From a virus, in the IMG/VR virus record IMGVR_UViG_3300027861_004304, positions 7,938-71,937 of that record: a DNA stretch of 64,000 nt, one strand, 5' to 3'. Below, one piece after another: positions 7,811-54,120 of the stretch (positions are counted from its first letter, which is position 1; each line of letters starts with the position of its first letter). The translations under genes were made by a program, and so were the position numbers. The notes under the pieces are model-generated. The model ran no database searches, was not told where the DNA came from, and saw only the letters and a list, made by a program, of their open reading frames with translations.

Positions 7811-8884
7811 TTATTCATCCTGGCATGCTGGATCTTTGGCGCCTTCCGCATATGGACTGATTGTTGTCGGAGAAGAAATAATATCTTCGCACTCAATTGG
7901 ATTATCAACATATATGCCTTTTGATTTAACTTCGCTAATGGATTCACAAATTGTTTTCTTATTTATTCTTGAGTCGACATTGATGTCAAAATAATATTCA
8001 ACGTAAGTATCATCAATATCTGGGTTAATTTCGGGGATTGTCTCGCTTATTAAGAGTCCATCGACGATATTGGTCGGCTCCTCTTTGAAAAATAGCGGAG
8101 TGTAAGACGCGTCGGGTTCAATTATGTAAACTTCAATTTCAAAATTTTCTTTTTCAAAAGTAACGCCGTTTTCCTCGACCATCAATAAGAGGTCTCTGTT
8201 GCCATCTTTAAAATTAACGTCAACTCTGGATCCATCCTGAAAAGTGATTGAACTCTCAATTGGATCTGGCTCATTGTTGTTTTTTACATTAAATTGATTG
8301 AGGATTGCTATGTTGGCTTCTTCTTCTATCATTTCGGCTGCTGTCAGAACTTTTGTGACGTATGTAACGTTCAGTGATATCTGTGGAATTTGAAGATCGG
8401 GATAAGATCCCACTATCGAAGGGAGCAAAGGATTGGAGCCGGTTAAAAAGAAAGAAGCTGTGTTCGCATATTCACCATCGAGGAAAACTATTTTCCAATT
8501 TGGGGCCATTCGTGATTGAAAGTCTGAATCGCCCATTGGATCAACCAAAGAAAAATGCTTTTCCGGAGTTGATTGAATACGAACCCTGTCCTCCTCTGGC
8601 AACTCAAGCCTCTCGTCATCTGTCATACTGTCAACAATAAGCGTATAATCTGTTGCTCTTCCAGAAAAAGCATGCTGCGTCTTTAATTGCGCCGTGTTTT
8701 CCTGAATTCTCCCTTCAATGTCGTTTTGTACCTCCGTAATCTCTCCGTGATCACCGTCATAAAGGATGTTGCTATCAAAAAAGGTGTAGTAAACTGGCTT
8801 AAATTTTCCAATTGACAGGAGTTGTTTTCCGAATTGCGTAAGTTGGATGTCTAAAACTTCTTCTTTTTTGTTAAAAAACGTCAT
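7811..8884 (-). CDS. Virion structural protein, paralog-like to 99..1073
   Basis: 357 aa; MTFFNKKEEVLDIQLTQFGKQLLSIGKFKPVYYTFFDSNILYD matches the N-terminal motif of 99..1073; ATGA overlap with the upstream gene. Confidence 0.6.
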   Translation of the reverse strand: MTFFNKKEEVLDIQLTQFGKQLLSIGKFKPVYYTFFDSNILYDGDHGEITEVQNDIEGRIQENTAQLKTQHAFSGRATDYTLIVDSMTDDERLELPEEDRVRIQSTPEKHFSLVDPMGDSDFQSRMAPNWKIVFLDGEYANTASFFLTGSNPLLPSIVGSYPDLQIPQISLNVTYVTKVLTAAEMIEEEANIAILNQFNVKNNNEPDPIESSITFQDGSRVDVNFKDGNRDLLLMVEENGVTFEKENFEIEVYIIEPDASYTPLFFKEEPTNIVDGLLISETIPEINPDIDDTYVEYYFDINVDSRINKKTICESISEVKSKGIYVDNPIECEDIISSPTTISPYAEGAKDPACQDE

Positions 8885-14800: not shown

Positions 14801-17800
14801 TGCATGACCATTCTGGAATTTCTGTTTACTTGATAGAAAGATCCCGTCCCAGAGTAATTTTGAGCGTTCACTGTCGAACCAGGAATCCCGAATTCAGGAA
14901 CGCCGCTATAATATCCAAACTGGTTAACGCTCGGAGTCAACATGAAGTCTCTCAATGGCCCTCGGACCATGCTATTTCTCCAGTTGAGTTGGTTATTCGG
15001 TGAGAATTCTGCTGCGTATCGGTCTAGACCTGGGCCGCCGTTGCTATCTCCCATGGTGCTGGGATCACCTGGTGCTGAAAACCTGGAAACCATTACATGT
15101 TCCGTGCGCCCTCTTTGAATTTTAGCAGCATCAAACATTCCTCCGACGAAAGCAGATGCAGACAAAGTTGTATCGCTCGGGTCGTTAAGCAAGCTCCAGG
15201 GGCCTTGACGCGTCCACGCTCTGTTATTTGATGTTCTGCCCGGCGCTTGAACGATTTCATAATCTTTTCTAAAGTTTCCGATATTGGAATGCAGGGTTCC
15301 CGAAACATAGCCTGTTGGCTGTCCAACGACTTGCTTAATATTTTGAATGTTTATGGGCCTCTTCGCCATGGGGGCGCGATATAAAGTTGCCCTGGGAAGG
15401 TTGAATGGCTGTGCCAGGATTTTCACAACCCCAGTTGATGAAGTAATTTGCCACGCTTCGGCTCTATTCGTGGCAGTATCGGCGCCGGTCTGGTTTAAAT
15501 CAGTGTGGCGGACCTGCATGCCTCCAACAAATTTCTCTGTGAATGGGCCTTGGAGGGGAACTAAGGAGTCAACGGTGTCAACATGAATTTTTGTCATGTC
15601 AACATTGTGGCCTAAATCTGCTGATATTTTCAGGGCGTATTTGTTGACGGTCGTGGTGGTCAATATGGTAAATGGAACAATTCTTTCGCCTTTGACGGAT
15701 TGATAATCAAACGAATCTGAAAATGTAGTTAAACTTCCTTCTGCCTTGAAGGCTGAATACTTAAGTTTTCTCTTTATTAATGGATTATCAGAAGTATTCG
15801 GGGCGTAGCTCTCAATATTGGCGGTTGTTAGATAAATGCCATCCGTGTCTCCGGTGATCGGTCTCACATGAGGAAGAGTGTTCTTTAAATAATCGTTATC
15901 CTTGTTGATATATGAATTCACTCCACCGTCAATAGGTTTATCCAGCATCATTCTGAGCGTTTCAACTGTGCGATGGCCTCCAGAAAGCCCTCGTTGGGAT
16001 TGGCGTCGATAAATATTTCTATTTGCATCCACTTCTGGATTTCCGGAAGAAATAGCTGGCGTGGCGCTATCGGCGAAGCGGGCCCACCAAGCACGGTTGA
16101 ATTCGGGGTCATCATTAACTGGGTGTCTGTTATTTTCATATGACTGGGCGAATTCTTGCGGAAGACTTTTCCACTTACCAGGTTGGAAAATTTCTTGCCC
16201 GCCCTTGCGCAGACCCGAATTATCATTGGAATCAAGATCTAGTTGATTAAACCCCTTGCCACTCATGCCAGTCTTGTCGGCTTCCCACGTTTCCAAGCAA
16301 TTGCCGGCGTCATCAAATTTCTGGCAACCTTCGTTGTTTTCCAGATCTGGTATCCGAGTTTCCAACGTTGGAAATTTGGTCCAGTACTTATTCCTTTCAA
16401 GAACATGGCTTTCTACCATATTTCTCATACTATCGGAAAACTTTGCAGAAGCAGGAATTAACTGATTTAGGAAATTTGATAAAGAATTGTCAATCCATTT
16501 ATAAAACTCAATATATCTGTCTAAATCTGGCTCATTTTGAACCCTTTCGAAGAAAAGTTGCCGCAATTTTGACAATTGTTTGTATTCTTGCCTATATCTA
16601 TTGACAGGATCACCGATTAAAGTGTTAAAATCAACAATTGTGGCAAAAACATTCAATATCTCTTCGGAAATATTCTGATACATGCTCTTTTCAATTGCGA
16701 AAAAGTATTCAATCGGGCGATTCACCAATTGATATACGTCGTCTGTTTCATCGATGTTTATCATATCAGCGCTTTGAATGTTCTCTGGAATTGTTTGCTT
16801 GCCGCTGTAAACAAATCTTGTATCCAAAACTTTGCTGCTGTCTGCTGGGAAGAAATCTGCCTTTCCTGGGTGTTGAGTGCCAACAACTTCACCCATCCAT
16901 CTATATCTGCTTTGCCTCTCGGTTGATCCGGACGACAAATCGGGAACAAAAAATTCTCCTGATGCGTCGGATCCCGTTAAAGTATCAAACTCCCAATTAA
17001 GAGCCAAAGTCTCCATTTCTGGGATTAGAACCCCAGAAAGGGGAGTTGAATATAGATATGTGCTTTCATAAGGATGAATGACCCCGTGATTTTCAGGATC
17101 TCGACTGTGAGCTTGAATAGCCTGATCATTTAAGTAAGATGTCCAATATCTGACGGATCCTAGCTTAACGTCCGTTTCTTCCAGGAGAGATCCAGTAAAA
17201 TTGGTTCTATGTGCGCCGGCATAAATTCTTTTTGGTTGATTTATAAATCCTAATCGGCTGGTGTAAGACACAGGTAAAGAAGCAGTTAAGAGAAATTCGT
17301 TCGCGACAATTCCAGCATCAGAATTGACGCCGTATAGTTCCAAAATGCGTGGTGGCGAGCTTGATCCGCTTACTAAGTCGAGGCCATAAACGCTTGGAGA
17401 GAACCTTACAGCAAAATTCCATTTTTGATTATCATAAACATCATAAAATAAAGAACTCGTTAATTGTCCGGTGCCTGCCGAAGAGCTATAGTTCATTTGA
17501 AAATGAACATTATCTGATTCAATTTCTTCTCTGATTGAGTATACTTGCATATTCCAATCGGAAGCTGGCCAAGTGTAATCGCCAGGAGATGATGTAAGGG
17601 CTGTATGGAAACCAAACAAGGAGGAGGTTATAAAATTTGTTGGAAAGTATTCTGGGTGGCTTTGAGTTAATTTTTTTGGAAAAATTGCTTCTGCTTCTAG
17701 AGTAAAAGAGGTGTTCCCTTCTCCACCACCCCCGCCCGAAGCGCTTATAAAAGATCTTGCATCTGAACCGGGGGAGCTTGCGGTATGTTGATAAACCGAA

Positions 17801-35516: not shown

Positions 35517-36197
35517 CTATTTTTTTAATAAAATGTTTAAACTTAAATTGGGATTATCCACGGTTATACATTTATCCCAACGGGCATCGCGCTGGCCTGA
35601 ATTGATCGCGAATCTAATTTCTTCGCAACTTTTGAAGCCGGCCTGCTGCGCAGCTAGCCTAAGTTCTTCAAAAGAATAAAAACTAATAAGGTGGTTGTAT
35701 TTCCCGTGAGGATTTCCTTTTTTCATTTTTTCACTATGACAATGAAAGATGGCGGCTTGACCGTTCCCATCCAATATGCGAAATAAATTTTTCATCGCAA
35801 CATAAATTTTTGATTTATCTAGATATTGCATGCATGCTCCGGAGAAGGCCTTCGAAAAGGCGCCAGAGGGCAATTCAGATAAATCCGGGAAGCTGTCATT
35901 GAGGCATGTTACGTTTTTAACATTTACGTTTTTAACATTTCTTTGTGCTATTTTTACTTGACTTGGTGAATAATCAACCATGACCACTCCGTTAACGAGC
36001 TTGGAAACTTCTAGGGCGAGGCCGGCGCTAGCTCCCCCAATATCTGCTACATTATCTTTTTTATTAAATTCCAAAAATTTATTTAAAATTATGGCCATTT
36101 CGTTATATGACATCAACCCACTTCTAGCGGCGCTTTTATAAACATCAGATGTCGCTTTGTTGTTGTATAGGGTTCTCCAATATTCCTCTTGATTCAT
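35517..36197 (-). CDS. Class I SAM-dependent methyltransferase
   Basis: VADIGGASAG motif I, VDYS, MQY, FRILDGNG. Confidence 0.75.
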   Translation of the reverse strand: MNQEEYWRTLYNNKATSDVYKSAARSGLMSYNEMAIILNKFLEFNKKDNVADIGGASAGLALEVSKLVNGVVMVDYSPSQVKIAQRNVKNVNVKNVTCLNDSFPDLSELPSGAFSKAFSGACMQYLDKSKIYVAMKNLFRILDGNGQAAIFHCHSEKMKKGNPHGKYNHLISFYSFEELRLAAQQAGFKSCEEIRFAINSGQRDARWDKCITVDNPNLSLNILLKK

Positions 36198-36880
36198 TAT
36201 TCACCTCTTATAAGTTGTTGTGATTTTTCTGGGCCCTCATTAAACAGAAGATCCACTATAGACAAATAGGGAATGAATTCACCCCATTGCTGATTGTAAG
36301 TTGGATGTTCATAATCTTGAAAATATATTTCTATATTTTCATTTTCAAATTTCTCATTATCAACGTAATCTTTTCCCTGAGATCCAAAAAGGAAACTATT
36401 AGCTTTTCTTTTTTTACAAATATCAATTACTAAATCCTGTTTTTTGGATTCTACTTCCAAGGCGCTTAATTTGATAAAGCAGGTCTCAATATCTAATTCC
36501 TTGATAAAAAATCTAGTTGAATAGTCTGTTAAGTCGATTAATTTTTCCCAATTTTTCGCATACATATCCTCAAAAAAATCACTATATTGCGAAAAAAATG
36601 GCGCCCTTTTATAATTATTTAACAAAGTGAGCCAGTGCTTTTTTCTCCACTTACTTGTATTGTTTATCTTCATATCCAATATTGTTTTTTCGTGATAACC
36701 CTTTGTTAAAACGGGGACCGTTAACCAAGCGGGGCCGGACGACGTCTTAATTCTATTTCGATTAATAAAGCTATTTTTTTCAAACTGAACTTTGTCTAAA
36801 ATGATGTATTCGCTACTTAATATCATTTTTTGAAAATAGCCAAGCCATGGCAAATAGGCCGGCTGGTGTGCTGTTAACAT
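36197..36880 (-). CDS. wbqC: WbqC-family protein
   Basis: HQPAYLPWLGYFQKM...LDKVQF...NRNRI...WLTVPV...HPTYNQ...LSIVDLLFNEGP. Confidence 0.92.
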   Translation of the reverse strand: MLTAHQPAYLPWLGYFQKMILSSEYIILDKVQFEKNSFINRNRIKTSSGPAWLTVPVLTKGYHEKTILDMKINNTSKWRKKHWLTLLNNYKRAPFFSQYSDFFEDMYAKNWEKLIDLTDYSTRFFIKELDIETCFIKLSALEVESKKQDLVIDICKKRKANSFLFGSQGKDYVDNEKFENENIEIYFQDYEHPTYNQQWGEFIPYLSIVDLLFNEGPEKSQQLIRGE

Positions 36881-37323
36881 GATGGCGTGCCTCTCGTCTT
36901 ATAATATCCCTCTTTAACCCTATAGGGGTTTCCCACAATTAAAGAATAGGGGGGAATATGTCCCCCATTAATTAAAATAGTGCCGGCCGCGACGACTGAA
37001 TGGTGTCCTATATGAGTTTTTCCGCCAATAAAACTATGAGAACCCACGAACACGTTGTCTTCTAAAATTATTTCTCCACGCTCAATTTCATCATGTATAC
37101 CTATGCACAACTTATGAGAATCTGCTACGTTAATTGAGACAAAGGAGGCTATATCGCAATTATCTGACAGAACCACCTTCCCCTTTGTTGCATTAACTTC
37201 CGAATAAAATCCTACAAAAACATTTTTCCCTATTTCTGGAGATCCCTTAATATATACAAGCGGATGAAACTGATTGGGATATAGCCCCAGAAGTTTAACC
37301 AAGAGATTTTTAATTAATCTCAT
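36874..37323 (-). CDS. Hexapeptide-repeat (left-handed beta-helix) acyltransferase
   Basis: IGKNVFVG, IILEDNVFVGSHSFI, IGHHSVVAAG, IPPYSLIVGNP. Confidence 0.85.
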   Translation of the reverse strand: MRLIKNLLVKLLGLYPNQFHPLVYIKGSPEIGKNVFVGFYSEVNATKGKVVLSDNCDIASFVSINVADSHKLCIGIHDEIERGEIILEDNVFVGSHSFIGGKTHIGHHSVVAAGTILINGGHIPPYSLIVGNPYRVKEGYYKTRGTPSC

Positions 37324-38339
37324 TGTGAAATATCCTCATAAAGTATAATGTCGTCCTGTATTTTATCAACCTTTAAGATGCGACCAATAAGATCATCGAT
37401 CTTTTTAGGAGAAAGGCCTGTGCCCGGTCGCTTAAATGATAAATCACTCCTAGACAAAATATGACCCCTCGACAGTGGCTTGTTAGTGACAATACTTCTG
37501 CGAGCGATATCCCTCATCGATCGTTCTCTAATGGTAGGCACCAAGTCTGGAGATCCAAGAATGGCCTCTGTGCGGCGGATATCTAGTACTAACTTTTTCA
37601 TTTGGGATGGTGTGGCCGAGAAATGGTGGTCGGGGCCCGGAAGACTCGAATCGAGGGTGAAATGTTTTTCGACGACCTCGGCGCCTTGAGCGACTGCGAT
37701 TACAGATGCGAGTTCATCGCGCGTGTGATCTGAAAATCCGATTTTTACATTGAATTTTTTTTTAATTTCTAACATTTTTCTCATATTAACTTCACAATCC
37801 TCCGCAGGATATGAAGAAATACAATGTAAGACTGTCAAGTCCAATTGCCCCTCGCTCCTTATCGCAAATACAGCGTCTGCGATTTCCTCCTCGAAGGACA
37901 TGCCTGTTGAGATTATCATTGGTATTTTTTTATTTGCATAGTATTTCAGCAAATCTAAATTGGTTAAATCATCGGAGCCAACCTTTATCATTGGAGGATC
38001 AAAGATTCTCAGAATAAAATCCAAATCTGACTTATTTTGCGGAGTTGTGAAACAAACTATTTCATTTATGTTACAAAAATTGACTATTTCTAGCCATTCC
38101 TCATCGGAAAATTCATATCTTTTGAACATCTCCATTTGAGATTCTGTGATTTCTTTTCCTTGAGACTCATAGGTGTAAGTTAAGTCTGAATCTACTATGA
38201 ACTCCTCTGCTTTAAACGTCTGAAATTTGACTGCGTCAGCCCCGGCGTCCTTTGCTGCCTTAATTGTCTCTTTGGCCAAAGAGACAATTCCATTATGATT
38301 TATTCCTATTTCAGCTATGATAAAGCACCGGTTAACCAT
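37320..38339 (-). CDS. neuB: Nonulosonic acid synthase (NeuB/PseI/LegI family) with C-terminal SAF domain
   Basis: FIIAEIGINHNG, GADAVKFQT, IKVGS, IISTGM, LHCISSYP, GFSDHT, EKHFTL, GPDH, RRSIV, KRPGTG. Confidence 0.95.
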   Translation of the reverse strand: MVNRCFIIAEIGINHNGIVSLAKETIKAAKDAGADAVKFQTFKAEEFIVDSDLTYTYESQGKEITESQMEMFKRYEFSDEEWLEIVNFCNINEIVCFTTPQNKSDLDFILRIFDPPMIKVGSDDLTNLDLLKYYANKKIPMIISTGMSFEEEIADAVFAIRSEGQLDLTVLHCISSYPAEDCEVNMRKMLEIKKKFNVKIGFSDHTRDELASVIAVAQGAEVVEKHFTLDSSLPGPDHHFSATPSQMKKLVLDIRRTEAILGSPDLVPTIRERSMRDIARRSIVTNKPLSRGHILSRSDLSFKRPGTGLSPKKIDDLIGRILKVDKIQDDIILYEDISQ

Positions 38340-38526
38340 TCTCGGATAGCTCTTTTACCAACGTTGAGATTCGATTATCAAACTCATCGACTCTTGACAT
38401 CAATTTCCTTGCTTCATCTGGTGCGACCGTGAATACTAACCTCAAGATATCCATCCAATTAACGTTGTTTTTTGTTCTAATCTTCTCAATTTCATCAATA
38501 ATTTCTAGATCTGTTCGTTTTGACAT
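38332..38526 (-). CDS. Small hypothetical protein between neuA and neuB
   Basis: 64 aa; GAGGG RBS; translationally coupled to its neighbours. Confidence 0.65.
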   Translation of the reverse strand: MSKRTDLEIIDEIEKIRTKNNVNWMDILRLVFTVAPDEARKLMSRVDEFDNRISTLVKELSENG

Positions 38527-39215
38527 TTTCCCTCTCTTTGTGAATTTTCAAACATTTTTTCAGCTATTTCAAGCTGCCACTCATAATCAATATCCCAGCA
38601 TTCCTTTTCGCTCTCAACAACAAAAATATCCGGATCGAAGCGCCTACGGAAAGAACCCATATGTATATTTCTCCGTATGTCGGCTGTGGATCCCGCATAT
38701 AAGCAATGGGCCGCTTCATAAATTATATTGGCTTTTTTAGTGTCCAAGTGTGCCGTACACTGTTCTAATGGTGTGCCCCCCGAATCCCAATAAAATGTAC
38801 GTTTTTTTACAACTCCGAACAAGCCACGGTAATCAGATTGTAGATATTTTTTAATAAAACTCTCTATTGTTGTGGTTAATAGAAAAGGACAACATGCATT
38901 TATCTCTACAAAAAATTTGTGTGGAATATGGTCAACAATTTCATAAATCTCTCTGATGGTGGCAGTCTCTGAAATTGATGCGTCGGCTCTTTTGAAAAGA
39001 TTTATATCTGTATATTTCGAGGCGATATTTAATACTTCTTGGCCATGGCCTGCTACAAAAATTTGATCATTTGGGATTATTTTCGAGGCGAGTAATTTAT
39101 TTATTGCCACATCAAGAAGGGTAGTTTGAGAAAACTTCTTAAACATTTTTCCCGGAAGCCTCTCAGAATTAGACTTTGCCAATATCAAAAATGAAATATC
39201 TTTAATATTTTTCAT
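38505..39215 (-). CDS. neuA: CMP-nonulosonate synthetase (NeuA/PseF cytidylyltransferase)
   Basis: ILAKSNSERLPGK, INACCPFL, WDIDYEWQL motifs. Confidence 0.85.
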   Translation of the reverse strand: MKNIKDISFLILAKSNSERLPGKMFKKFSQTTLLDVAINKLLASKIIPNDQIFVAGHGQEVLNIASKYTDINLFKRADASISETATIREIYEIVDHIPHKFFVEINACCPFLLTTTIESFIKKYLQSDYRGLFGVVKKRTFYWDSGGTPLEQCTAHLDTKKANIIYEAAHCLYAGSTADIRRNIHMGSFRRRFDPDIFVVESEKECWDIDYEWQLEIAEKMFENSQREGKCQNEQI

Positions 39216-40099
39216 TATTTTTCATAACCCCATCTTTTAAGTTGTGGATGTAAAATTTCTGTTATATATGAGGGCAGGTCTTTTGGTAAACTTTTCCACT
39301 CTTCAAGAATGCCACTATTCATATGGTCACCATGAAGAGATAATCCGGTTTTATTTTTTTTATCCCACGATCTAAAATTTTGATGTAATCTAGTTTTTTT
39401 AAAATTATTCTCAAAAGAGAATCTTGATTTCAAATCTTCTCTTTTATCTTCCCCTATTCTTAAATCCCCGTCATAACCGTGAAATTTTAAAATTTCCCTA
39501 TTTTCTGTAGAATTAAAGAAGGCTTCGAATTTATCAAAGATCTTATTATAATCACTATAAAAATCTTCATATTTCAACAACAATACCCGATCTTTAAATT
39601 TTGAATTAATAAACTCAAACCCATTAATTTGAGGGATTACTTCTCTTTCGGCCAATAAGAATAATTCTTTTTTCGTAGGGAGAGTCGTGAAGGACTCTTC
39701 TTTGCAAATACCAAACATAGATAATCTCATTCGCCTCGTCGACAAAATAATATCTCTAAAATCTCGATACGTCACAATGATCGGACTCCCATTAGTTGGT
39801 GGTCGAAATAAATTAAATCTAGGTAACTTATAAAAATAGAGAATTTTATCGTAGTCAAAAATTTCTGACATCAACTGCTTCAATAAAGTAGATCCGCTCC
39901 TTGGAACAGAAAAATTGTATATAATTTCATCATAGTTGTTAATATCTGTGTTTCTTCTTCGCGACTTTGAATTGTCGAATTGATCGCCCTCTTCTAGATA
40001 ATTTAAGACTTTAGGATTGTCCGTTTCTCCCCAAAAGCTATGAGTGGGTCTGGTGTATTCAAGATATCTCATATACTTTTGAAATTTTATTGTTGTCAT
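39215..40099 (-). CDS. Sulfotransferase-family protein
   Basis: PAPS-binding SVPRSGSTLL, YRDFRDIILS, LLKYEDF, G..EEWK. Confidence 0.8.
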   Translation of the reverse strand: MTTIKFQKYMRYLEYTRPTHSFWGETDNPKVLNYLEEGDQFDNSKSRRRNTDINNYDEIIYNFSVPRSGSTLLKQLMSEIFDYDKILYFYKLPRFNLFRPPTNGSPIIVTYRDFRDIILSTRRMRLSMFGICKEESFTTLPTKKELFLLAEREVIPQINGFEFINSKFKDRVLLLKYEDFYSDYNKIFDKFEAFFNSTENREILKFHGYDGDLRIGEDKREDLKSRFSFENNFKKTRLHQNFRSWDKKNKTGLSLHGDHMNSGILEEWKSLPKDLPSYITEILHPQLKRWGYEK

Positions 40100-40107
40100 T
40101 TTTTACC

Positions 40108-41001
40108 CTATGTTTGAACATATTCTATAAAATTATTAAGAATAGTAAATTTATCTTCCACAATCGAATATATATTCATGTTTGTGTATTTTTTCCATTC
40201 AACCCATTCTTTCAAGTAGAATTCCTGAAATGACGAATCTTCGAAGATGCCGGCTGAATTTTTCGGATCATCCCAGCGGCCGCCAATTCCATCGAATCCG
40301 ACAATATAGACATTACTGGATCCGATATGGGCACAAACAGGTAGTGTTACCATGGTCATCTTGTTTTCAGTCATGTGCATAAATCCATACTTCTTTTTGT
40401 TGACATATGGAAACGCGCGGCCTTGCGAATATATATTTCTTAAATAAGGCTCTGCTGCTGGTGGATATCCAGAACTTCCAAAGATTATAATATTTTCTTC
40501 ATTATTAAATCTTAGGCTTGGTTGCCTAGAATTTTCTCCAAGACTAGCTAGCTTAGGATATTCTTCCGGATTCTGGTTTATACTCTTAATTGAAGTATAT
40601 TTTAAATCCTGCACTTCGGAAAACTTTGGGCGCGCCATTTGTAGATTTTCCCAAAATTCTGTCCAATATTTCAAAGGAAGGCGCACTGTATCTCCTGCAA
40701 AATATTTATTTAGAGTCTTGATATCGCCGATATGTGTTCCCTTTTCGTGATGAATTGTTAGTAATTTTGTTTTTAATTTTTTATGTTCAGTATATGTATC
40801 ATTAATTAATTTTAAAGTATCAAGAGCCGACGTGGGGTCAACGAAAAACCAATAATCTGGCTCAATTCCCCTTTGCAAGAATAGTTCCATAGAATTACTA
40901 TAACACATGATCTCAATATTGGGATCTTTAGAAAATCTTGCGAGATCATCCCACATTTTTAAGGTACTCTCACCGGTACCGACAAGTAATATGTTTTTCA
41001 T
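40108..41001 (-). CDS. Maf/DUF115-like (CMP-nonulosonate transferase-like) protein
   Basis: ILLVGTGES, CYSN, GIEPDYWFFVDP, IGSSNVYIVGFDG, and C-terminal NIYS pattern. Confidence 0.65.
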   Translation of the reverse strand: MKNILLVGTGESTLKMWDDLARFSKDPNIEIMCYSNSMELFLQRGIEPDYWFFVDPTSALDTLKLINDTYTEHKKLKTKLLTIHHEKGTHIGDIKTLNKYFAGDTVRLPLKYWTEFWENLQMARPKFSEVQDLKYTSIKSINQNPEEYPKLASLGENSRQPSLRFNNEENIIIFGSSGYPPAAEPYLRNIYSQGRAFPYVNKKKYGFMHMTENKMTMVTLPVCAHIGSSNVYIVGFDGIGGRWDDPKNSAGIFEDSSFQEFYLKEWVEWKKYTNMNIYSIVEDKFTILNNFIEYVQT

Positions 41002-42011
41002 AATTTAAATTCCGTGTGTAGCGGCAAATTTAGAATAGAAGAATGCACAAGCTCTAAATTAGGAAGTATTTGGCCGTTGCTAAAATATGAGGTTTTGTGC
41101 AACATCGGATAGTGTCTCGCTAATCTATTATTTAATATAACATCATTTGCCTTGATTGTCAAGGCCGTAGCGAAATAAAATGAAGATTTTTTATTGTGAG
41201 GTAATAGACACCCCTCAAATTTATCTAGCATTTTGAAATAATTCTCTTGCCTGATCTTCAAACTGTCCTCATATCGATCTAGTTGAACTAACCCCATTGT
41301 GGCGTTGAGATTGTTCATATAAAATTTGAAGCCTTCTTGAACTATATCATATGATCCTTCGCCTTGTTGTCTTCCAAAATTGCGATAAGATCTGAAATAT
41401 TCATCAGCACCGGGGTCATCTGTGGAAATCATTCCACCATCAGATGTACAAATTGGTTTATAGGGGTGGAAAGAGAAAAATATAAAATCACTTTTAATAG
41501 TTGGCGTGACACAATGAGCGGAGTCGACTACGACAATCTCGTCATCGCATTTTTCTTTATAAAAGGCATCAAAACCTTCAATGTTGCTTACCCCGCCGTA
41601 TAGAACTGGCATAACGACGCGAGGATTTGATTCCCAAAAAACGTCCCGCAATTTGTCGCGGCGAAGTTGCCTTTGTTTTTTATAATCTTTTATGCTAAAT
41701 TGAAGATTATCGTCAACATCAACAAAAATTAAATTATGGCCAAAATGTTTTGCTGCCCAAGCTGGGGATGTGAATCCCAGAGATGTAGTATATACATCGC
41801 ACACTCCATATTTTTCTTTAAGATAAGAAAAAATCATAAAAGCCGATGCGCTGGCTGAATTTGTTGCAATATTAAATTTTTTATTTGAAAAGGAAGCAAA
41901 CTTGTTCTCGAATAATGACACATTTTCGCCAAAACCTATATTCCCACTCAATAAAACCTCATTTATTTTACCAAGATCTTCTTTGCAAATTCTTGTTTCA
42001 AACATCTTCAT
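40998..42011 (-). CDS. DegT/DnrJ/EryC1/StrS PLP sugar aminotransferase (PseC-like)
   Basis: ATNSASA, VDSAH, FSFHPYKPICTSDGGMI, GFKFYMNNLNATMG. Confidence 0.92.
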   Translation of the reverse strand: MKMFETRICKEDLGKINEVLLSGNIGFGENVSLFENKFASFSNKKFNIATNSASASAFMIFSYLKEKYGVCDVYTTSLGFTSPAWAAKHFGHNLIFVDVDDNLQFSIKDYKKQRQLRRDKLRDVFWESNPRVVMPVLYGGVSNIEGFDAFYKEKCDDEIVVVDSAHCVTPTIKSDFIFFSFHPYKPICTSDGGMISTDDPGADEYFRSYRNFGRQQGEGSYDIVQEGFKFYMNNLNATMGLVQLDRYEDSLKIRQENYFKMLDKFEGCLLPHNKKSSFYFATALTIKANDVILNNRLARHYPMLHKTSYFSNGQILPNLELVHSSILNLPLHTEFKL

Positions 42012-42016
42012 TTAAA

Positions 42017-42985
42017 TTATTCCGCGATCTCGAGCCCAGACTTGATTAACTCAATTAATTGACAAACATCTTCGTTTAAATGAAGTGATGAATTAAATTC
42101 TTTTCCGGCATAGAGAACACTATAAGTGTGCTTCTTGTGAGTGTATTGAGGTAGCACGGCCAATAAATTATTTGATATTTCCATAGTGAAGGGAAGTTCT
42201 GTCTTAGCCAGCATATCTTCATGAAGCTTTTCCCCAGGGCGCATGCCGATAATTTTCACCTTTAAATCATCAATATTTGTTATTTTTTTAATAGAATCTA
42301 AAATGGTACCCATCGAAAAGGAATTAATCTTTGGTATAAAAACTTCTCCACCCTGAGCGCTCTCCAAAGAATTTAAAACTGTGTCAACTGCATCGTTGAG
42401 AGTAAATAAAAATCTACTACACTCCATAGAGGTGACAGTGATCTCTCGACCAGACTTAATTTGATTGAGCCAAAGAGGAATGAACGAGCCGCGAGAGGCA
42501 ATCACATTTCCATAGCGAACCGATGCAAAAATTGTGCTACTTGAATTGTAATCAAAATTTGTAAAAATACGTTCTGCTATGAATTTTGAAGAACCATAGA
42601 CGTTGACCGGTTGACACGCCTTATCTGTTGAGATAAGAATGCACTTTTTAACATCGTTATTAAGCGAGGCTATTGCTACATTCTCACTACCTTTAATATT
42701 TGTTTTAACGCACTCGTCTGGATAAAATTCCATATCTTCTATTCTTTTTAGAGCACCAGCGTGAATAACATAATCTGGTTTATGTAGCCTCATTGTTGTG
42801 TCGAGTTTTTTATGATCTCTCACATCTCCGATGACACACTTGATTCTTGGACGACCCTTGAACGAAACCGCTTGTTTTCCCTCGTCTCTGCTATAAACAA
42901 TTATTTGATTCTTGGGATCTTTCAGAAGCTTTTTGATGAGTGCTTTACCCAAAGATCCTGTACCGCCGGTAATAAAATATTTCAT
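42017..42985 (-). CDS. pseB: UDP-GlcNAc 4,6-dehydratase (PseB/FlaA1/FnlA family)
   Basis: ITGGTGSLG, YSRDEGKQ, HAGALK, STDKA, YGSSK, RYGNVIASRGS, RPGEKLHE. Confidence 0.85.
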   Translation of the reverse strand: MKYFITGGTGSLGKALIKKLLKDPKNQIIVYSRDEGKQAVSFKGRPRIKCVIGDVRDHKKLDTTMRLHKPDYVIHAGALKRIEDMEFYPDECVKTNIKGSENVAIASLNNDVKKCILISTDKACQPVNVYGSSKFIAERIFTNFDYNSSSTIFASVRYGNVIASRGSFIPLWLNQIKSGREITVTSMECSRFLFTLNDAVDTVLNSLESAQGGEVFIPKINSFSMGTILDSIKKITNIDDLKVKIIGMRPGEKLHEDMLAKTELPFTMEISNNLLAVLPQYTHKKHTYSVLYAGKEFNSSLHLNEDVCQLIELIKSGLEIAE

Positions 42986-45018
42986 TATAATTTTACTCTT
43001 TCAATTGTTTTTGGTGCAGGATTGATAGAGGAAACTATTTTTAAAGTTGTGCCTCTTTTATTTAACCAATCTGCCCAATTAGTGATTGCATCAGTCGTGA
43101 TCTCGGCCTCATGCTTGAGGGTGGCCACTGCGTCTGGATTATCTGATACTTTATTTTGCTGAATGAACTCTTTCTCATTATAATTAGACCCTTCTTTGTC
43201 ATAAAAGTGCGTCTTAGACGGATCAGGGCTTATCAATTTATTATCCCACCCGACAGTTATAATCTCTGATACTCCTAAATGCTGGGCTAAATAGAATACT
43301 GATTCATACATAATTCCGGGCCCATAGGGTCTGGTATTGGTTTCTTTGTCATATGTCCAAGAGTCGAAATCGTGTGTTTTGGAAACAGAATTGTTAAAAT
43401 CCCTTTCTCTAATAAAGAATTTTAAATCATTTACCCCCAAGTTCCACGGAGTCGTAGATGCCTCAACCGCAATTGGATTGTGGGTTGAATAATCATAATT
43501 CTTAAAATTGGCGCAGTTATATGTATGAAAATCTACATATTCTCCAAACAAGTCAAAGGCTTGCTTTACTGAAATTACAACGTTGTCTTTAAGAAGATCT
43601 TTTAATTTTCCTTCGTCGTGGTCCGTTAAGGTCGGCCCGCATGATAAAATATAGCATTTCTTTCCCTTGAAAGAATCTTTCAACAACTCAATTTTTTCTG
43701 TCTGAGAGTTGAGGTTTCTTACTGCGCTTTTAAGGGCTTTTGACCTTTCTTTCACATTTTCAATTTCTAAAATTGAATCTTTGACGGTCGACAAATTCTG
43801 GACATCTTTAATGCCCGGAAGAACCTCTTCCGCAAACTCATTATATATTTTTTCTTCTGTGAAATTCTTTACAAGATATTTCTTCAATTTTGCAGCGTTT
43901 CTTTTGAACCTGGAATATTCACCCCGGACTTCTCGGAGCCTCCTCTTAAAGCTGGCTTCTCTCGGAAAGGCCCATTGAGAATCCGCCTGGATAACATTCT
44001 CCCAAACGGCCTGCTTCTGGACGTCCTGTAAATCATAGTCTACGGACGCAAACATGGGCTTCTTTTTCCCTTTTCTCTTTGGATCAGGCATGTAAAGGAA
44101 GTCACAGTGACCTGACCAGCCAGATACGATCACTGGAAGACCATTATAAGCTGCCTCAAATAGAGGAAGACCAAAGCCTTCTCCGTGAGCCGTCGAAACA
44201 AGCGCTTTAATTTTTGGATGTTGATATAAACCGGTCATTTCTTCCGGTGTCAAATCTCCGTGTATCAGATAAACTTTACACTTACAGGTTTCCCCTCCAA
44301 AGGTGCGCAGGAGAGATTGGAGTCTGCTTTGAGTGTGGCCCCGATCAATGATGCAATTGCTCTTAACAGAAGTTTTAAGAACAAGGCCAACTTCTTGATC
44401 AAAGTTTTCTTCCAGAAACCATTTGACGAGATTATCAAAGTTTTTCCTTGGACCCCATTGAGAAACGGCAAGGTAATTGAAATCATAATCGAGTTTCAAG
44501 TTGAGCTTCTCTTTCTCAAAATGACGAACTGGATAATTAACTGCCGCAATCGGAGTCTGACAAGTCAAGTGAACAGTTTCGCCTGTCTGATTATTCTGCC
44601 CTTGATAGTTTGTTGTTTCAAAGACGCCCTTAGAGTGGTTTGAGACAACGACAATTCTATCCATCTCGTTTGCTTTTTGAAGCCAAACTGGTGCAACCTT
44701 CGTTGTTTCAATTCCCGCTGTATATCCAATGTTAATTGGTGCCAGTTTCTCCCATTCGTTGGGAATTGTTACTTGCAATGACATGTCAAATTGTCCACCC
44801 TGCTGAGTAAAAATATGCGTCTGTGCGATTCTCTGATCTGTCCAAGTTCGTTCTTCGCACGCATCGCTAACCCAGCCAGTTTGGCCCCATGCGGTCGGAA
44901 TAACATAAATATCAAAGATGTCTTCCCTTGATCTGAGAGCCCTCAAAGCAAATCTTGCCTGTTCTCCATATCCAGATTGTGAAAGGACTGGCCCCCTTAC
45001 TACGATTTTTTGTCTCAT
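42985..45018 (-). CDS. GT4 glycosyltransferase fused to a C-terminal Maf/DUF115-like domain
   Basis: N-terminal SGYG, RKN, HGEGFGLPLFEAAYNGLPVI (GT4 E-x7-E); C-terminal LKDSFKGKKCYILSCGPTL...YLAQHLGVSEIITVGWD...HFYD; start likely MRQKIVV (45018, ATGA overlap). Confidence 0.85.
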   Translation of the reverse strand: MRQKIVVRGPVLSQSGYGEQARFALRALRSREDIFDIYVIPTAWGQTGWVSDACEERTWTDQRIAQTHIFTQQGGQFDMSLQVTIPNEWEKLAPINIGYTAGIETTKVAPVWLQKANEMDRIVVVSNHSKGVFETTNYQGQNNQTGETVHLTCQTPIAAVNYPVRHFEKEKLNLKLDYDFNYLAVSQWGPRKNFDNLVKWFLEENFDQEVGLVLKTSVKSNCIIDRGHTQSRLQSLLRTFGGETCKCKVYLIHGDLTPEEMTGLYQHPKIKALVSTAHGEGFGLPLFEAAYNGLPVIVSGWSGHCDFLYMPDPKRKGKKKPMFASVDYDLQDVQKQAVWENVIQADSQWAFPREASFKRRLREVRGEYSRFKRNAAKLKKYLVKNFTEEKIYNEFAEEVLPGIKDVQNLSTVKDSILEIENVKERSKALKSAVRNLNSQTEKIELLKDSFKGKKCYILSCGPTLTDHDEGKLKDLLKDNVVISVKQAFDLFGEYVDFHTYNCANFKNYDYSTHNPIAVEASTTPWNLGVNDLKFFIRERDFNNSVSKTHDFDSWTYDKETNTRPYGPGIMYESVFYLAQHLGVSEIITVGWDNKLISPDPSKTHFYDKEGSNYNEKEFIQQNKVSDNPDAVATLKHEAEITTDAITNWADWLNKRGTTLKIVSSINPAPKTIERVKL

Positions 45019-46280
45019 TTTGTAATCTCCGTGAAAGCCCAAGGCTTATATCCTTTCCGTGTTTCCCAGGAACCGTGGTTCTCGACGACTGAATCAATCA
45101 AATCAATCCACTGCTTCTGGAAGTTCTCAAAATTATAGTTTTTTGCGACGTGTTGACGGCCTTTGATTCCCAGAAGTTTCCTTTCATCGCGACTCATCAA
45201 AAAAACGTCTCTCAGAGCCCGTATGAAGTCTTCCTTAGAAACCCTGTCTTCGTAGATGTATGGAACCTGTTGAGAGCCTATGATGGCCTTTGAGGCCGGT
45301 GTAAGGCCTATTCCAAACCAGTCCTTCCCGTCAGTGACTTGTTCCTGCAGGCCGCCGGTCATATTGACGATAATCGGGGTCTGGCAAGAGAGGCTTTCAA
45401 GCGTTGCCAGCCCAAATCCTTCTGCGTCTGAAATATTGATCGTACAGTCGGCCATGTTGTACATCGCTGCAAGGGCTTCAGGGGCAATTTTGTTTGTCGA
45501 AAGAACAATGCGGCCGTCTGTTGCTTCAAGATTATTTAGAATGACCTCGAGGTCTTGACCGTTTGGATCCTTCGGGTCCGTATGCATGATGAGACGAACT
45601 TTATCTGTCCCCACCTCTTCCGCAAATTCATTAAACCAGTGAACAAGCGAGCCGCTCATCTTCCGGCGTGCGTTTCTGTTATTCCAGAAGAATGTCACCC
45701 TTTTGTCTTCGTCGCCATCAAAGTGGTTTGCTCGAAGGCTCGCGATATCTTCATCTGAAAATGGTCGGAAGATTCCAGTATCAACTGCGTGAGGAATATA
45801 ATGGTTTTCGACATGCGGAGAAACTTTATTGACAATATCGTGGGTTACCTTTGAGATTGACGCGATGACGTCTGTTGAGCTATAGAACTTATCATTAAAT
45901 TTTGGAAGAGGATAATTGTCCCAAACGTGATAATAGACCATTGGAATATGTTTTCGCACTTCATTTTCAATGGACCACAACCAGCCGTAGAAGCGAGGGT
46001 CTGTCATAAACCAAAGCATATCTGGCTTTTCATTGAAGATGACTGAACGGACCATTTCTGGGGTTCCATAGCCCTTAACTGGATATACGATCCAATCTTC
46101 GTCCCAGCCTTCTACTTTTTGTGGTTTGTAATCTTTGTGTGCGACGGCGCCGCCAAGACAAATGAATTTGTATTTGCCTGTTTTTAGCAGTGTCTCAATA
46201 ATGTACTTCGTTTGAGTTCCAACTCCCGACGGAGCCATGGGGTGATCTGCAATCACCAAAATCTTCTTTTTTTCTGTCAT
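45015..46280 (-). CDS. GT4 (GT-B) glycosyltransferase
   Basis: SGVG, IPHAVD, NRNARRK, YNMAD, AEGFGLATLESL, TGGLQEQV. Confidence 0.92.
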   Translation of the reverse strand: MTEKKKILVIADHPMAPSGVGTQTKYIIETLLKTGKYKFICLGGAVAHKDYKPQKVEGWDEDWIVYPVKGYGTPEMVRSVIFNEKPDMLWFMTDPRFYGWLWSIENEVRKHIPMVYYHVWDNYPLPKFNDKFYSSTDVIASISKVTHDIVNKVSPHVENHYIPHAVDTGIFRPFSDEDIASLRANHFDGDEDKRVTFFWNNRNARRKMSGSLVHWFNEFAEEVGTDKVRLIMHTDPKDPNGQDLEVILNNLEATDGRIVLSTNKIAPEALAAMYNMADCTINISDAEGFGLATLESLSCQTPIIVNMTGGLQEQVTDGKDWFGIGLTPASKAIIGSQQVPYIYEDRVSKEDFIRALRDVFLMSRDERKLLGIKGRQHVAKNYNFENFQKQWIDLIDSVVENHGSWETRKGYKPWAFTEITK

Positions 46281-46288
46281 TTAAACCT

Positions 46289-47050
46289 CTATGGACATTC
46301 GGGGGATCGGCAAAAATCGCACTTTGCGCAAGACCGCTTGTCCTTAATATAATTCTTTCTTTTAATGTTGAAAAGAGCCTTTTTTAGAAGGCTGCTTGCA
46401 TTTTCCATCTTTTTGTTTCCGCTTGTTACGCGAAAGATTTCAACTCTTGATTTTTTTGCTGTTCGTTTAAGAAGAGCAAAGTGTGTCTCAATATTTTTCA
46501 AGTCGATTCCGTGCTTCTGCGCAAAGAAAATCTTGTATAATGTCAACTGATAGGTCACCATTGGATCAGATCGTTTTCGCATATCCCATCCCCAAGAGCA
46601 GGACTTCCAATCAATAATGTGATATTTTCCGTCAGGGGTCTTGACGACAGCGTCGATATATCCCTTGAAGTTGTAATCTTCATTGTCAATTTTAACCATG
46701 AGTTGTTCTTCTGTTGAGAACACTTCGTATCCTTCCTTAAAATACTCGGTGACGGCTGGAATAATCGCTGGGAGGATCCCCATTGCTTGGACGGCCATAT
46801 TCTCCAAGTCTTCTCGGAACTCGATGTCGCTATCCAATGCTGCCAAGCACTCCTCGAATCTCTTCATAAAGTATTCTGGCGGCTCAAATTTCTCTTCTAA
46901 CAATTTCTTCTCACAAACGTCGTGAATGGCAGTTCCAAAGGCAGTATATTCGTTTCCCCTAAATCCCTTGAGCTTATCAATATAAGTCAATTTGTGATAG
47001 AAGGGACAGAAATTCCAATTTTTCAACTCAGAAAAGGATATGTGTGGCAC
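46289..47050 (-). CDS. PD-(D/E)XK nuclease, Cas4/AddB-like with Cys cluster
   Basis: SFS...CP, GTAIH, GYIDAV, IIDWKS, QLTLY, C-terminal CAKCDFC...C. Confidence 0.88.
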   Translation of the reverse strand: MPHISFSELKNWNFCPFYHKLTYIDKLKGFRGNEYTAFGTAIHDVCEKKLLEEKFEPPEYFMKRFEECLAALDSDIEFREDLENMAVQAMGILPAIIPAVTEYFKEGYEVFSTEEQLMVKIDNEDYNFKGYIDAVVKTPDGKYHIIDWKSCSWGWDMRKRSDPMVTYQLTLYKIFFAQKHGIDLKNIETHFALLKRTAKKSRVEIFRVTSGNKKMENASSLLKKALFNIKRKNYIKDKRSCAKCDFCRSPECP

Positions 47051-51343: not shown

Positions 51344-51419
51344 TGGTGCCTCCGACACGATTCGAACGTGTAACCCTCGGCTTAGAAGGCCGATGCTCTA
51401 TCCGTTGAGCTACGGAGGC
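51344..51419 (-). tRNA. tRNA-Arg(UCU), CCA encoded
   Basis: Acceptor GCCTCCG/CGGAGGC, D arm GCTC/GAGC, anticodon arm TCGGC-CTTCTAA-GCCGA, T arm ACACG-TTCGAAT-CGTGT, ACCA end. Confidence 0.97.
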
Positions 51420-52122: not shown

Positions 52123-52151
52123 AATATACCACGATATCAACCTGTTGTCAA
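52123..52151 (-). promoter_or_regulatory. Sigma70-type promoter TTGACA-N17-TATATT with extended -10 TG
   Basis: Read directly. Confidence 0.7.
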
Positions 52152-52616: not shown

Positions 52617-53285
52617 TTATTTTTCTTTTTTCAAGAAATTTCTCAATCTTACGACACCATTGTTAATCTCGACGTAAGTTGCGTGAGAAACCCAGTCTCC
52701 AGAATTGACATATGTTTTTATTTTTTCGTTCTCGTCAATCCAAATAACTGCTTCTGGGATATGCGTATGCCCTATTATAAGGACGTCAACATCATTATTT
52801 AAATCAATGATATCCCACAATCTTTTGATTTTTCTTCTGTTTATTCTGAGATTGTTGAACCAAGTAGAAACATCTAGATTAAAATATCTTTCTAAAAAAT
52901 CTTGAAACACTGAAATTATTTTCATTACAGTTCGATAATGGACAATTCCTTTCTCATATTTATCTCCGTGTTCTACTCTAAATTTCCTTCCGTTCTCTTC
53001 AAATTCATATTGGTTCATGAATCTGATTCCAAATATTTCTTTTCCTGCGAAGTTTGCCAAGGCTCGATCGTGATTCCCGATAATATAAATGATTTCTTTA
53101 TTGTAGTCGACAATCTTTAAAACGTTCATTGCCCATTTGGTGAACGTTGGTATTTTTAAAAATTCAATTATGTCGCCATTTAAGATAAGTTGATCATATT
53201 TCGCAGACGATAAAAATTCACAAAGCTCTTCTTCTTTATAAAATTTTGATCCTATATGCGTATCGGAAATGATCAGCCTTTTCAA
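52617..53285 (-). CDS. Calcineurin-like metallophosphoesterase (LpxH/UDP-2,3-diacylglucosamine hydrolase-like)
   Basis: ISDTHIG, LNGDIIE, GNHD, EHGD, GHTH, NSGDWV. Confidence 0.85.
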   Translation of the reverse strand: MKRLIISDTHIGSKFYKEEELCEFLSSAKYDQLILNGDIIEFLKIPTFTKWAMNVLKIVDYNKEIIYIIGNHDRALANFAGKEIFGIRFMNQYEFEENGRKFRVEHGDKYEKGIVHYRTVMKIISVFQDFLERYFNLDVSTWFNNLRINRRKIKRLWDIIDLNNDVDVLIIGHTHIPEAVIWIDENEKIKTYVNSGDWVSHATYVEINNGVVRLRNFLKKEK

Positions 53286-53551
53286 TATATTAAATCCTCC
53301 AAATCAGGATCTTCCTCATAACTATAAATAACAATTGTCCTCATTTCATTATAATTTGGCGGAAGGTCTTCACGCAACATCTTCGCGCTATCTTCCCCAT
53401 CGACAAAAAATTCTATAAGGCGCCCTCCGTCATCACTTGAAACTTTTATTTTTAGATTTGCTGATTTAGGTAATCGGGGCGTATATTCCGAATATGCTAA
53501 ATCAACAATTTCTTTTAGCGTCAAGGCGACCAACATGTCCTTGTGTAACAC
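53282..53551 (-). CDS. Hypothetical protein
   Basis: 89 aa, GTG start. Confidence 0.55.
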   Translation of the reverse strand: MLHKDMLVALTLKEIVDLAYSEYTPRLPKSANLKIKVSSDDGGRLIEFFVDGEDSAKMLREDLPPNYNEMRTIVIYSYEEDPDLEDLIY

Positions 53552-53581
53552 AAATACTCTCTCATTTTTTTATTTTTTTTT

Positions 53582-53735
53582 AAAAAAGGAAACAGAAGAT
53601 GTTGGTTTACTCGCATGGCCAACATGCTATCCTCTCGTTAATTTTGGTGCTTAAGAAGCTTCCCCCTCATCCACGGTTCGTAAGAGATATTGAACCACCT
53701 ATGTTAATAAAATAAATCCTTCTTCTATTTCCTAT
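53582..53735 (-). ncRNA. Candidate structured ncRNA (~150 nt, 6S-like architecture)
   Basis: Own promoter; 13-bp 5'/3' closing helix AGGAAAUAGAAGA/UCUUCUGUUUCCU followed by a U-tract; further internal helices; no ORF. Confidence 0.65.
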
Positions 53736-53741
53736 GTCTTA

Positions 53742-53771
53742 ATTATAACACTTATTTAGGCTCTTTGTCAA
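53742..53771 (-). promoter_or_regulatory. Sigma70-type promoter TTGACA-N18-TATAAT with extended -10 TG
   Basis: Predicted +1 (~53735-53733) coincides with the start of the ncRNA closing helix. Confidence 0.75.
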
Positions 53772-54120
53772 CAAAATAATCATCCAAACCAAACTTTTTT
53801 CTCAAAATATGAAAGGATTGCTCCTTCAAACCAAGAAAACGCATTGCTTCCGCCTGTGTTCTTGTGGCAGAGAATGCGTATTTGAAGACAGCGTCTTGTA
53901 CAATGGCATGCAGGGAACTCCAAATGGGAAATCCATACATTCGATTTGAGACAGGCTTCGTTGACAGTTCCAATTTCAAGGCTATTACTTCTTCCAAGGT
54001 TAGACTGGAAAGCATAATTTCAAACTCTTCGTTAGACCGTCGTTCTTTTTTGAGTTTGCTGCTCATACTATAATTTTTATTTTTTCCATTATAGTTTTTC
54101 TTTCTCTTCCAGGAAATCAT
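53752..54120 (-). CDS. Putative DNA-binding protein with a Fis-like C-terminal HTH
   Basis: AVFKYAFSATRTQAEAMRFLGLKEQSFHILRKKFGL resembles the Fis HTH. Confidence 0.55.
   Translation of the reverse strand: MISWKRKKNYNGKNKNYSMSSKLKKERRSNEEFEIMLSSLTLEEVIALKLELSTKPVSNRMYGFPIWSSLHAIVQDAVFKYAFSATRTQAEAMRFLGLKEQSFHILRKKFGLDDYFVDKEPK

Follow-up and report, generated by a model that had tools for sequence, protein, structure and literature searches.

A conserved, covarying RNA with two pseudoknots behind a small gene of large uncultured marine phages

The stretch of DNA analysed here (the window) is a 64-kb portion of a 71.9-kb IMG/VR virus record that is rated 22% complete. Nearly all of its long open reading frames (ORFs) lie on the minus strand, and there, between an ORF of 122 amino acids and one of 89, is an RNA element of about 154 nt whose parts are listed in Table 1. 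A tRNA-Arg(TCT) gene lies on the same strand 2.2 kb downstream of the element. Elsewhere the minus strand carries an ORF of 3,614 amino acids (8881-19725) and a sugar-modification cluster (36000-46300) comprising a NeuB-type synthase, several group-1 glycosyltransferases, and an MptE-like domain. Neither the DNA of an 801-nt region nor the 122-aa protein shows similarity to GenBank phages, and a PhoH-like neighbour stays below 40% identity with every cultured phage, which leaves no annotated relative as a guide. The source phages are large uncultured marine phages.

The upstream 122-aa gene is widespread in phages and has no counterpart among Pfam or PHROG families. Its product has a basic N-terminus and a putative C-terminal helix-turn-helix, and the nearest named clusters in the Atlas are HTH_8/NinH, at 0.81-0.83. 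An AlphaFold model is of middling confidence (pLDDT 66.8); Foldseek matches to it all have E > 3, with Fis chains recurring among them, and a PDB profile search gave chance matches only. A Fis/NinH-type helix-turn-helix is thus a possible assignment, and a weak lead. The downstream 89-aa ORF likewise has no match in Pfam or PHROG. It is found by tblastn in 55 of 112 syntenic loci, just after the position of the element in all but one of them (L030), and a search of viral contigs with the 89-aa protein found no loci.

Table 1. Parts of the RNA element and its neighbouring genes, in window positions
Feature	Coordinates	Strand	Remarks
Upstream 122-aa gene	53752..54120	minus	always directly upstream of the element; heads the tmRNA/tRNA cluster
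-35 box TTGACA	53771-53766	minus	within the final codons of the upstream 122-aa gene
Extended -10 box TGnTATAAT	53742..53750	minus	TATAAT 53747-53742, TG 53750-53749; 12/12, spacer 18 nt
RNA element, window copy	roughly 53735 to 53582	minus	about 154 nt
P1 5' strand AGGAAAUAGAAGA	53721..53733	minus	pairs with 53599-53587; 13 bp, one G-U
J1/2 linker	53697..53720	minus	AU-rich, single-stranded; semi-conserved UAUAAAC-like stretch in relatives (alignments)
P2 hairpin GGUUC/GAACC	53675..53696	minus	53696-53692 with 53679-53675; 12-nt loop AAUAUCUCUUAC
PK-A 5' strand UCUCU, in P2 loop	53683..53687	minus	faces GAGAG 53635-53631
P3 variable arm	53646..53674	minus	0 to about 70 nt in relatives; G-rich, Shine-Dalgarno-like run
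J3/B AAAAUUAAC and PK-A 3' strand GAGAGG	53631..53645	minus	near-invariant in 57 sequences
P4 hairpin GCAU/AUGC	53613..53627	minus	53627-53624 with 53616-53613; loop holds PK-B 5' strand GUUGG 53623-53619
L3 GAGUAAA and PK-B 3' strand CCAAC	53601..53612	minus	L3 53612-53606, PK-B strand 53605-53601; covariation, RNAalifold
P1 3' strand UCUUCUGUUUCCU and T6 tract	53582..53599	minus	P1 strand 53599-53587, T6 53587-53582; read from sequence
Downstream 89-aa ORF	53282..53551	minus	follows the element in the window's clade
tRNA-Arg(TCT)	51344-51419	minus	

Homologues of the 122-aa gene were the source of all related loci (L002-L032, L150-L229). With the 122-aa protein as query, viral contigs gave 31 loci; nhmmer with the window element found a match just after the gene in 13 of these, and about 16 had a common core when their intergenic sequences were read. 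A first covariance model (R1) was seeded from three close copies (alignment A4) because MAFFT alone failed to register the strands of P1. It gave 15 matches among the first 100 sources and two among 49 further pattern-scan loci, L138 and L143, the latter at E 0.95 and left out of the copy count. A loose two-block DNA pattern scan of the viral contigs returned 117 stretches, almost all noise, in which L138 was the only new true copy by model score and L098 was the same contig as L014. Metagenome contigs scanned with an alignment of the 122-aa protein yielded 80 loci, 53 of them matched by R1 at E <= 0.1. A second model (R2; 55 sequences, alignment A8) added L014, L020, L013, and L021, together with the cut copies L158, L176, and L223.

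About 70 phage or metagenome loci carry homologues, behind the same small upstream gene, and the distinct full-length copies number 57, with lengths of 110-191 nt. The neighbouring protein is only 41-98% identical across the relatives that keep the RNA element. A strict pattern for the P2 hairpin had no match in a set of bacterial and archaeal genomes that covers 185,579 species, one genome per species. A copy of the L017 type at L016 (786-932) has an internal deletion that removes the 5' strands of P1 and P2, which makes it a copy in decay or else a variant of the assembly.

A promoter of the form TTGACA-N18-TATAAT, pointed out in the initial annotation, is present on the minus strand ahead of the element, with the additional TG of an extended -10 box, and is the sole 12/12 match between 51000 and 56000. 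Promoter-like sites as a class number 21 in that interval, against 16.0 +/- 4.1 in shuffles. This count alone is not above chance; the real evidence for the promoter is its conservation in homologues: a match of at least 10/12 lies upstream of 47 of the 57 distinct copies, and one of at least 11/12 upstream of 44. A TTGAC(A/G) box recurs 16-18 nt ahead of the -10 box; among the 57 copies the end of the -10 box lies 13-65 nt upstream of the reference point, which is set four bases into the model match. Throughout the window's clade the -35 box falls inside the last codons of the gene. From the spacing, we infer that transcription starts near A53735-A53737, 2-4 nt ahead of P1. Two further near-consensus sigma-70 promoters on the minus strand, each 11/12 with TG, precede the 122-aa gene (54277-54249) and an ORF at 52140 (52151-52123); what they mark looks like an early region read by host RNA polymerase.

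At the other end, the run of T residues noted earlier directly follows the closing helix, and in the window the promoter, P1, and the U-tract exactly frame the fold. Termination at this U-tract is the most likely outcome in the window phage. A T-rich tract (at least 6 T per 7 nt) abuts P1 in 25 of the 57 distinct copies and is absent from the other 32. As regards an independent small-RNA gene, then, the copies have a promoter motif of 10/12 or better in 47/57 and a U-tract after P1 in 25/57, and most copies must be the 5' part of a longer transcript, given how few have the tract. In L017 and L023 a U9 tract separates the element from a tmRNA gene, and no promoter is seen in the 14 nt between the two, which implies partial or conditional read-through, a feature of an attenuator.

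The fold was assessed by counting pairs in the 57-sequence alignment (A10) over 35 pairs, with 500 shuffles and the sliding of one partner by 1-3 columns as controls. Paired cells make up 89.6% of the total against 73.6% in the shuffles, none of which reached 89.6%, and the slid controls pair at 39-53%; the alignments were fitted to models that hold P1-P4, so that these counts lean towards those helices. Covariation among homologues, which the initial annotation had named as a test of its RNA, is extensive: 27 of the 35 pairs change on both sides. Pair statistics in the 55-sequence alignment are similar. PK-B is absent from both covariance models, so its support is independent of model fitting; all five of its pairs change on both sides, and 97.9-98.5% of its cells are paired. 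A model-free check with MAFFT and RNAalifold on 11 short-form copies gave P1, P2, P3, and PK-B, with 13 of 24 pairs compensated. Folding of the window copy as a single sequence, also suggested at the outset, gave -40.4 kcal/mol (z -2.77), only mildly better than shuffles, 2 of 200 being as good. The strand is well defined, in that wobble (G-U) pairs are frequent and the window copy scores 155.5 bits against 9.4 bits for the opposite strand. What these results show is an RNA domain that is conserved, covaries, is specific to one strand, and contains two pseudoknots.

The 13-bp closing helix with its single G-U pair stands as first annotated. All 12 of the modelled P1 pairs change on both sides among the 57 sequences and 91% of cells are paired, while the sequence of P1 is itself not conserved; MAFFT and RNAalifold recover the inner part of the helix independently. 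Inside it the picture has changed. The "upper helix" that had been drawn between GGUGGUUCAA and UUAAGCACC is paired in 46.6% of cells among 11 close homologues, within the 31-48% of its slid controls, and a proposed UCUCUUA/UGAGGGG helix reaches 79.7%, where a shift of 1-2 columns still leaves 75%, and covaries no more than shuffles do. The latter is best described as a pyrimidine run facing a purine run that makes no defined helix. In place of these internal helices, covariation backs the GGUUC/GAACC hairpin, P2, in which 98.6-99.2% of cells are paired and three of five pairs change on both sides. The AU-rich 5' segment described in the initial annotation is real and corresponds to J1/2, although it joins P1 to P2 and faces no second single strand; no partner strand for it was found in alignments A8 and A10.

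Nowhere is the family more conserved than in the P2 loop. Its UCUCU forms PK-A with the downstream GAGAG: the five pairs are almost always pairable and only two show a double change, so that the sequences support the pairing mostly by conservation, both sides being changed in the distant copies L020 and L013. In P3 the outer three pairs all covary, and RNAalifold gives an inner hairpin in the short forms. The 3' end had been drawn as a 7-bp AUGUUGG/CCAACAU hairpin, the two outer pairs of which are paired in only 25% of cells; the alternative offered with it, GCAU/AUGC with a GUUGG/CCAAC pseudoknot, is the version that the pair counts back. In P4, covariation is strong at the first two pairs (GC 26, AU 23, GU 8; GC 30, CG 20, UG 5) and weaker at pairs 3-4. 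P4 and PK-B, in which a hairpin loop pairs with a 3' strand and covaries with it, form an H-type pseudoknot. Roughly 15-20 unpaired nucleotides are conserved in the family, many of them at junctions. Taken together, the alignments describe a branched, compact double pseudoknot. AUG-initiated frames occur in P3 or at P4 in some copies, with varying length, frame, and presence; coding by a small ORF inside the element was set aside, the frames being inconsistent between copies when judged by eye.

At the gathering threshold, Rfam 15 finds only tRNA in the whole window. At E <= 10, the region 53400-53900 gives six chance-level rows, none of them a 6S RNA, YrlA, riboswitch, or ribozyme, and at E <= 0.5 the only rows in 14 relatives are tRNAs, true tmRNAs, and rows overlapping those. 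Neither 6S RNA nor YrlA, the families first named for comparison, has a match on the element in Rfam 15. For YrlA (RF02553) this holds in the window at E <= 10 and in the 14 relatives at E <= 0.5, sub-threshold rows appearing only on or between tRNA genes away from the element (L171, 1825-1887; L010, 5058-5157). The glutamine riboswitch (RF01739) and Downstream-peptide (RF01704) families are likewise absent from the rows of both searches, the window region at E <= 10 and the 14 relatives at E <= 0.5. ARAGORN found no tmRNA in the window, and in the 14 relatives RF00023 matches the neighbouring true tmRNAs only, never the element. Sub-threshold rows for permuted tmRNA (RF04321) were considered and rejected: they come from the 5' part of a true tmRNA and skip the element as a 113-nt insertion. 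Inside the phage tmRNA gene of L014 (1419-1513) there is a sub-threshold match to the wcaG RNA motif, at 33.1 bits (gathering 42). By these searches the element matches no catalogued RNA family and appears to represent a new one. The hedge in the initial annotation, that this might be an unrelated new class of noncoding RNA, has thus fared well, the element being a conserved, covarying RNA with its own promoter motif and no Rfam match. We found no description of this RNA in the literature. It may be among the 8,495 unnamed candidate structured RNAs from IMG/VR that the accessible text of PMC10690425 reports; a 2026 preprint on coevolutionary mining deals, in its accessible part, with other elements.

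What follows the element differs between relatives. Besides the 89-aa ORF, it can be a tmRNA gene, 11-35 nt downstream in L014, L017, L021, L023, L199, L203, and L204, or a lipoprotein-like ORF, as in L138, and the element is independent of the downstream gene. Two complete 190-kb relatives with the element beside the 89-aa ORF have their tmRNA about 23 kb away, and in a third relative, 92% complete, no tmRNA was seen. Relatives of the 122-aa gene without the element have tmRNA directly behind the gene, or a hairpin and a Flp-pilin-like small ORF followed by tmRNA. In eight loci (L186, L187, L206, L213, L214, L217, L218, and L220) the hairpin that, with the pilin-like ORF, replaces the element before tmRNA is GC-rich; the ORF has a Flp/Fap-pilin-like N-terminus, M.TF.KDESGATA.EYG. 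In five others (L207, L209, L212, L221, and L224), short TAACTAAC / TTAAGT-type repeats form long runs between a promoter-like box and the pilin-like ORF, about 150-200 nt beyond the TTGACA box of the gene. The tRNA genes of relatives (L002-L010, L164, L168, L171-L173, and L201), usually tRNA-Met(CAT) and tRNA-Arg(TCT) and sometimes tRNA-Asn, lie 0.4-2 kb downstream of the element.

Where present, P3 holds a G-rich run such as AAGGAGG, AAGGAGGUGA, or GGGGGUGAU. At least 6 nt match the Shine-Dalgarno consensus in 25 of the 57 copies, against about 6 expected from shuffled P3, a figure that is not a probability, as the copies are related. The P2 loop, for its part, resembles the rRNA tail that is complementary to the Shine-Dalgarno sequence. 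The phage's own genes use such sites (29 of 43 starts, versus 57 of 172 control windows), and a simple "ribosome sponge" would therefore hit the phage too.

We tentatively favour, with rather less than even confidence, the view that the element is an autonomous, stable, early phage RNA of a new family that acts in trans. Host sigma-70 RNA polymerase would read it from the near-consensus early promoter, and we infer that the transcript begins 2-4 nt before P1 and ends at the U-tract abutting that helix, giving a discrete small RNA. P1 ties the two ends together, with the AU-rich linker and then P2 following. The CU-rich loop of P2 pairs with the conserved GAGAG about 50 nt downstream, and the P4/PK-B pseudoknot would stack beside PK-A, just before the 3' strand of P1. 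Such an RNA would belong to the stable-RNA module of the phage, with tmRNA and tRNAs, and would probably have a protein or the small ribosomal subunit as its binding partner; it would not regulate one particular downstream gene. With the U-tract in no more than 25 of 57 copies, however, most must come as the 5' part of a longer transcript, which a cis-acting leader would explain just as well, and riboswitch aptamers and ribozymes, too, typically have many conserved unpaired nucleotides at their junctions.

A cis-acting leader, then, is the alternative with the most weight, in our view only somewhat less probable than the trans-acting RNA. In such an attenuator or riboswitch-like element, P1 and the U-tract would be a terminator whose strands are brought together by the folded core, and a ligand or factor, perhaps one tied to translation state, would set the run-on into tmRNA or the 89-aa ORF. 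The element is always first after a strong promoter, its U-tract, where there is one, abuts P1, and its conserved junction nucleotides with one variable arm are aptamer-like; the arrangement in L017 and L023, with U9 ahead of tmRNA and no visible promoter, points the same way. Against these stand the 32 copies without a U-tract, in which no overlap of P1 with the ribosome-binding site of the next gene was seen, the lack of relationship among the downstream genes, and the rarity of a closing helix that doubles as terminator stem. Known phage riboswitches are shared with hosts, whereas the P2 pattern is missing from all the bacterial and archaeal species searched. A partial precedent is the glutamine riboswitch beside the tmRNA gene of Melnitz-type myophages, as presented in the accessible text of PMC9004378. 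A more specific version, which we judge improbable, makes the element a phage-only sensor RNA: P1 would serve as terminator stem, and a mimic of Shine-Dalgarno and anti-Shine-Dalgarno pairing would lie inside, with the CU-rich P2 loop set against GAGAGG and a second, exposed run of the AAGGAGG or GGGGGUGAU type in P3. What binds the element would be free 30S subunits or some other read-out of translation capacity, and binding would decide between a stop that leaves the small RNA and run-on into phage tmRNA and neighbouring genes. If true, this would be a new class of ribosome-responsive attenuator.

The remaining readings are much less probable than the trans-acting RNA or the cis-acting leader. 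The fixed position just after an early promoter, whatever follows, and the untranslated genes (tmRNA, tRNAs) downstream in many relatives recall processivity RNAs such as HK022 put and the Bacillus EAR element, in which the nascent fold modifies its own RNA polymerase; downstream untranslated RNA genes and ORFs would then be read without termination. We regard such antitermination as quite improbable, since there is no Rfam family match, a U-tract right behind the element's own closing helix is odd for an antiterminator, and a scan of the stretch from 53582 to the tRNA gave no terminator-like site. A self-cleaving ribozyme, whose cut in the early transcript might for instance free a downstream tmRNA precursor or mRNA, seems a shade more doubtful still. 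The element is like small ribozymes in its size, its double pseudoknot, and its conserved unpaired nucleotides (roughly 15-20), and several relatives appear to transcribe it together with tmRNA, but twister, pistol, hatchet, hammerhead, and HDV models gave no match (Rfam, E <= 10), no conserved candidate cleavage dinucleotide was found, and the 5' end of tmRNA is normally made by RNase P. Least probable is the 6S-like decoy of the initial annotation, which would bind host sigma-70 holoenzyme as an open-promoter mimic. Its appeal lay in a small early RNA behind a strong promoter, its ends paired, with a single-stranded segment that is AU-rich. The layout of closing stem, central bubble, and terminal stem has given way to P2, P3, P4, and two pseudoknots in a branched arrangement, the upper helix on which it drew fails the pair count, and no 6S model matches. 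The RNA and the neighbouring phage genes moreover use consensus sigma-70 promoters, so early sequestration of the sigma-70 enzyme would hurt the phage.

Large marine phages carry tRNAs and tmRNA of poorly understood regulation and purpose, and the element sits in that module. The biology of phage takeover would gain a new RNA class whether the element proves to be a trans-acting RNA directed at host translation or RNA quality control, a ribozyme, or an attenuator specific to phages. The family suits structure probing, being compact, with two pseudoknots and with natural minimal (110 nt, L204-type) and expanded versions.

Among known systems, the accessible text of PMC9004378 offers a close parallel in Melnitz-type marine myophages, where a glutamine riboswitch (glnA RNA) lies beside the tmRNA gene, downstream of an early promoter. 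Both are pseudoknotted RNAs near a marine-phage tmRNA, after an early sigma-70-type promoter, and the presence of either varies between relatives, with or without tmRNA (PMC9004378, same text). The element is two to three times longer than glnA RNA, has another helix plan, belongs to another phage lineage, and has a P2 pattern that was not found in bacterial genomes. With 6S RNA it shares a length of about 150 nt, paired 5' and 3' ends, and its own strong promoter; 6S RNA is a rod with a large two-sided central bubble, whereas the element consists of P1, a hairpin, a variable arm, and two pseudoknots. YrlA has a tRNA-like module and a sequence-conserved Ro-binding stem, and P1 of the element is not conserved in sequence. 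The tRNA gene cluster of phage T4 includes small stable RNAs of unknown function, which resemble the element in being phage-encoded alongside tRNA-type genes; the phage lineage is unrelated, there being no GenBank phage match. From tmRNA the element differs in having neither a tRNA-like end nor a tag frame. It resembles the pseudoknot domains of tmRNA in its H-type pseudoknot with an A-rich third loop, and it fills the slot where relatives carry tmRNA, with which it is apparently sometimes co-transcribed.
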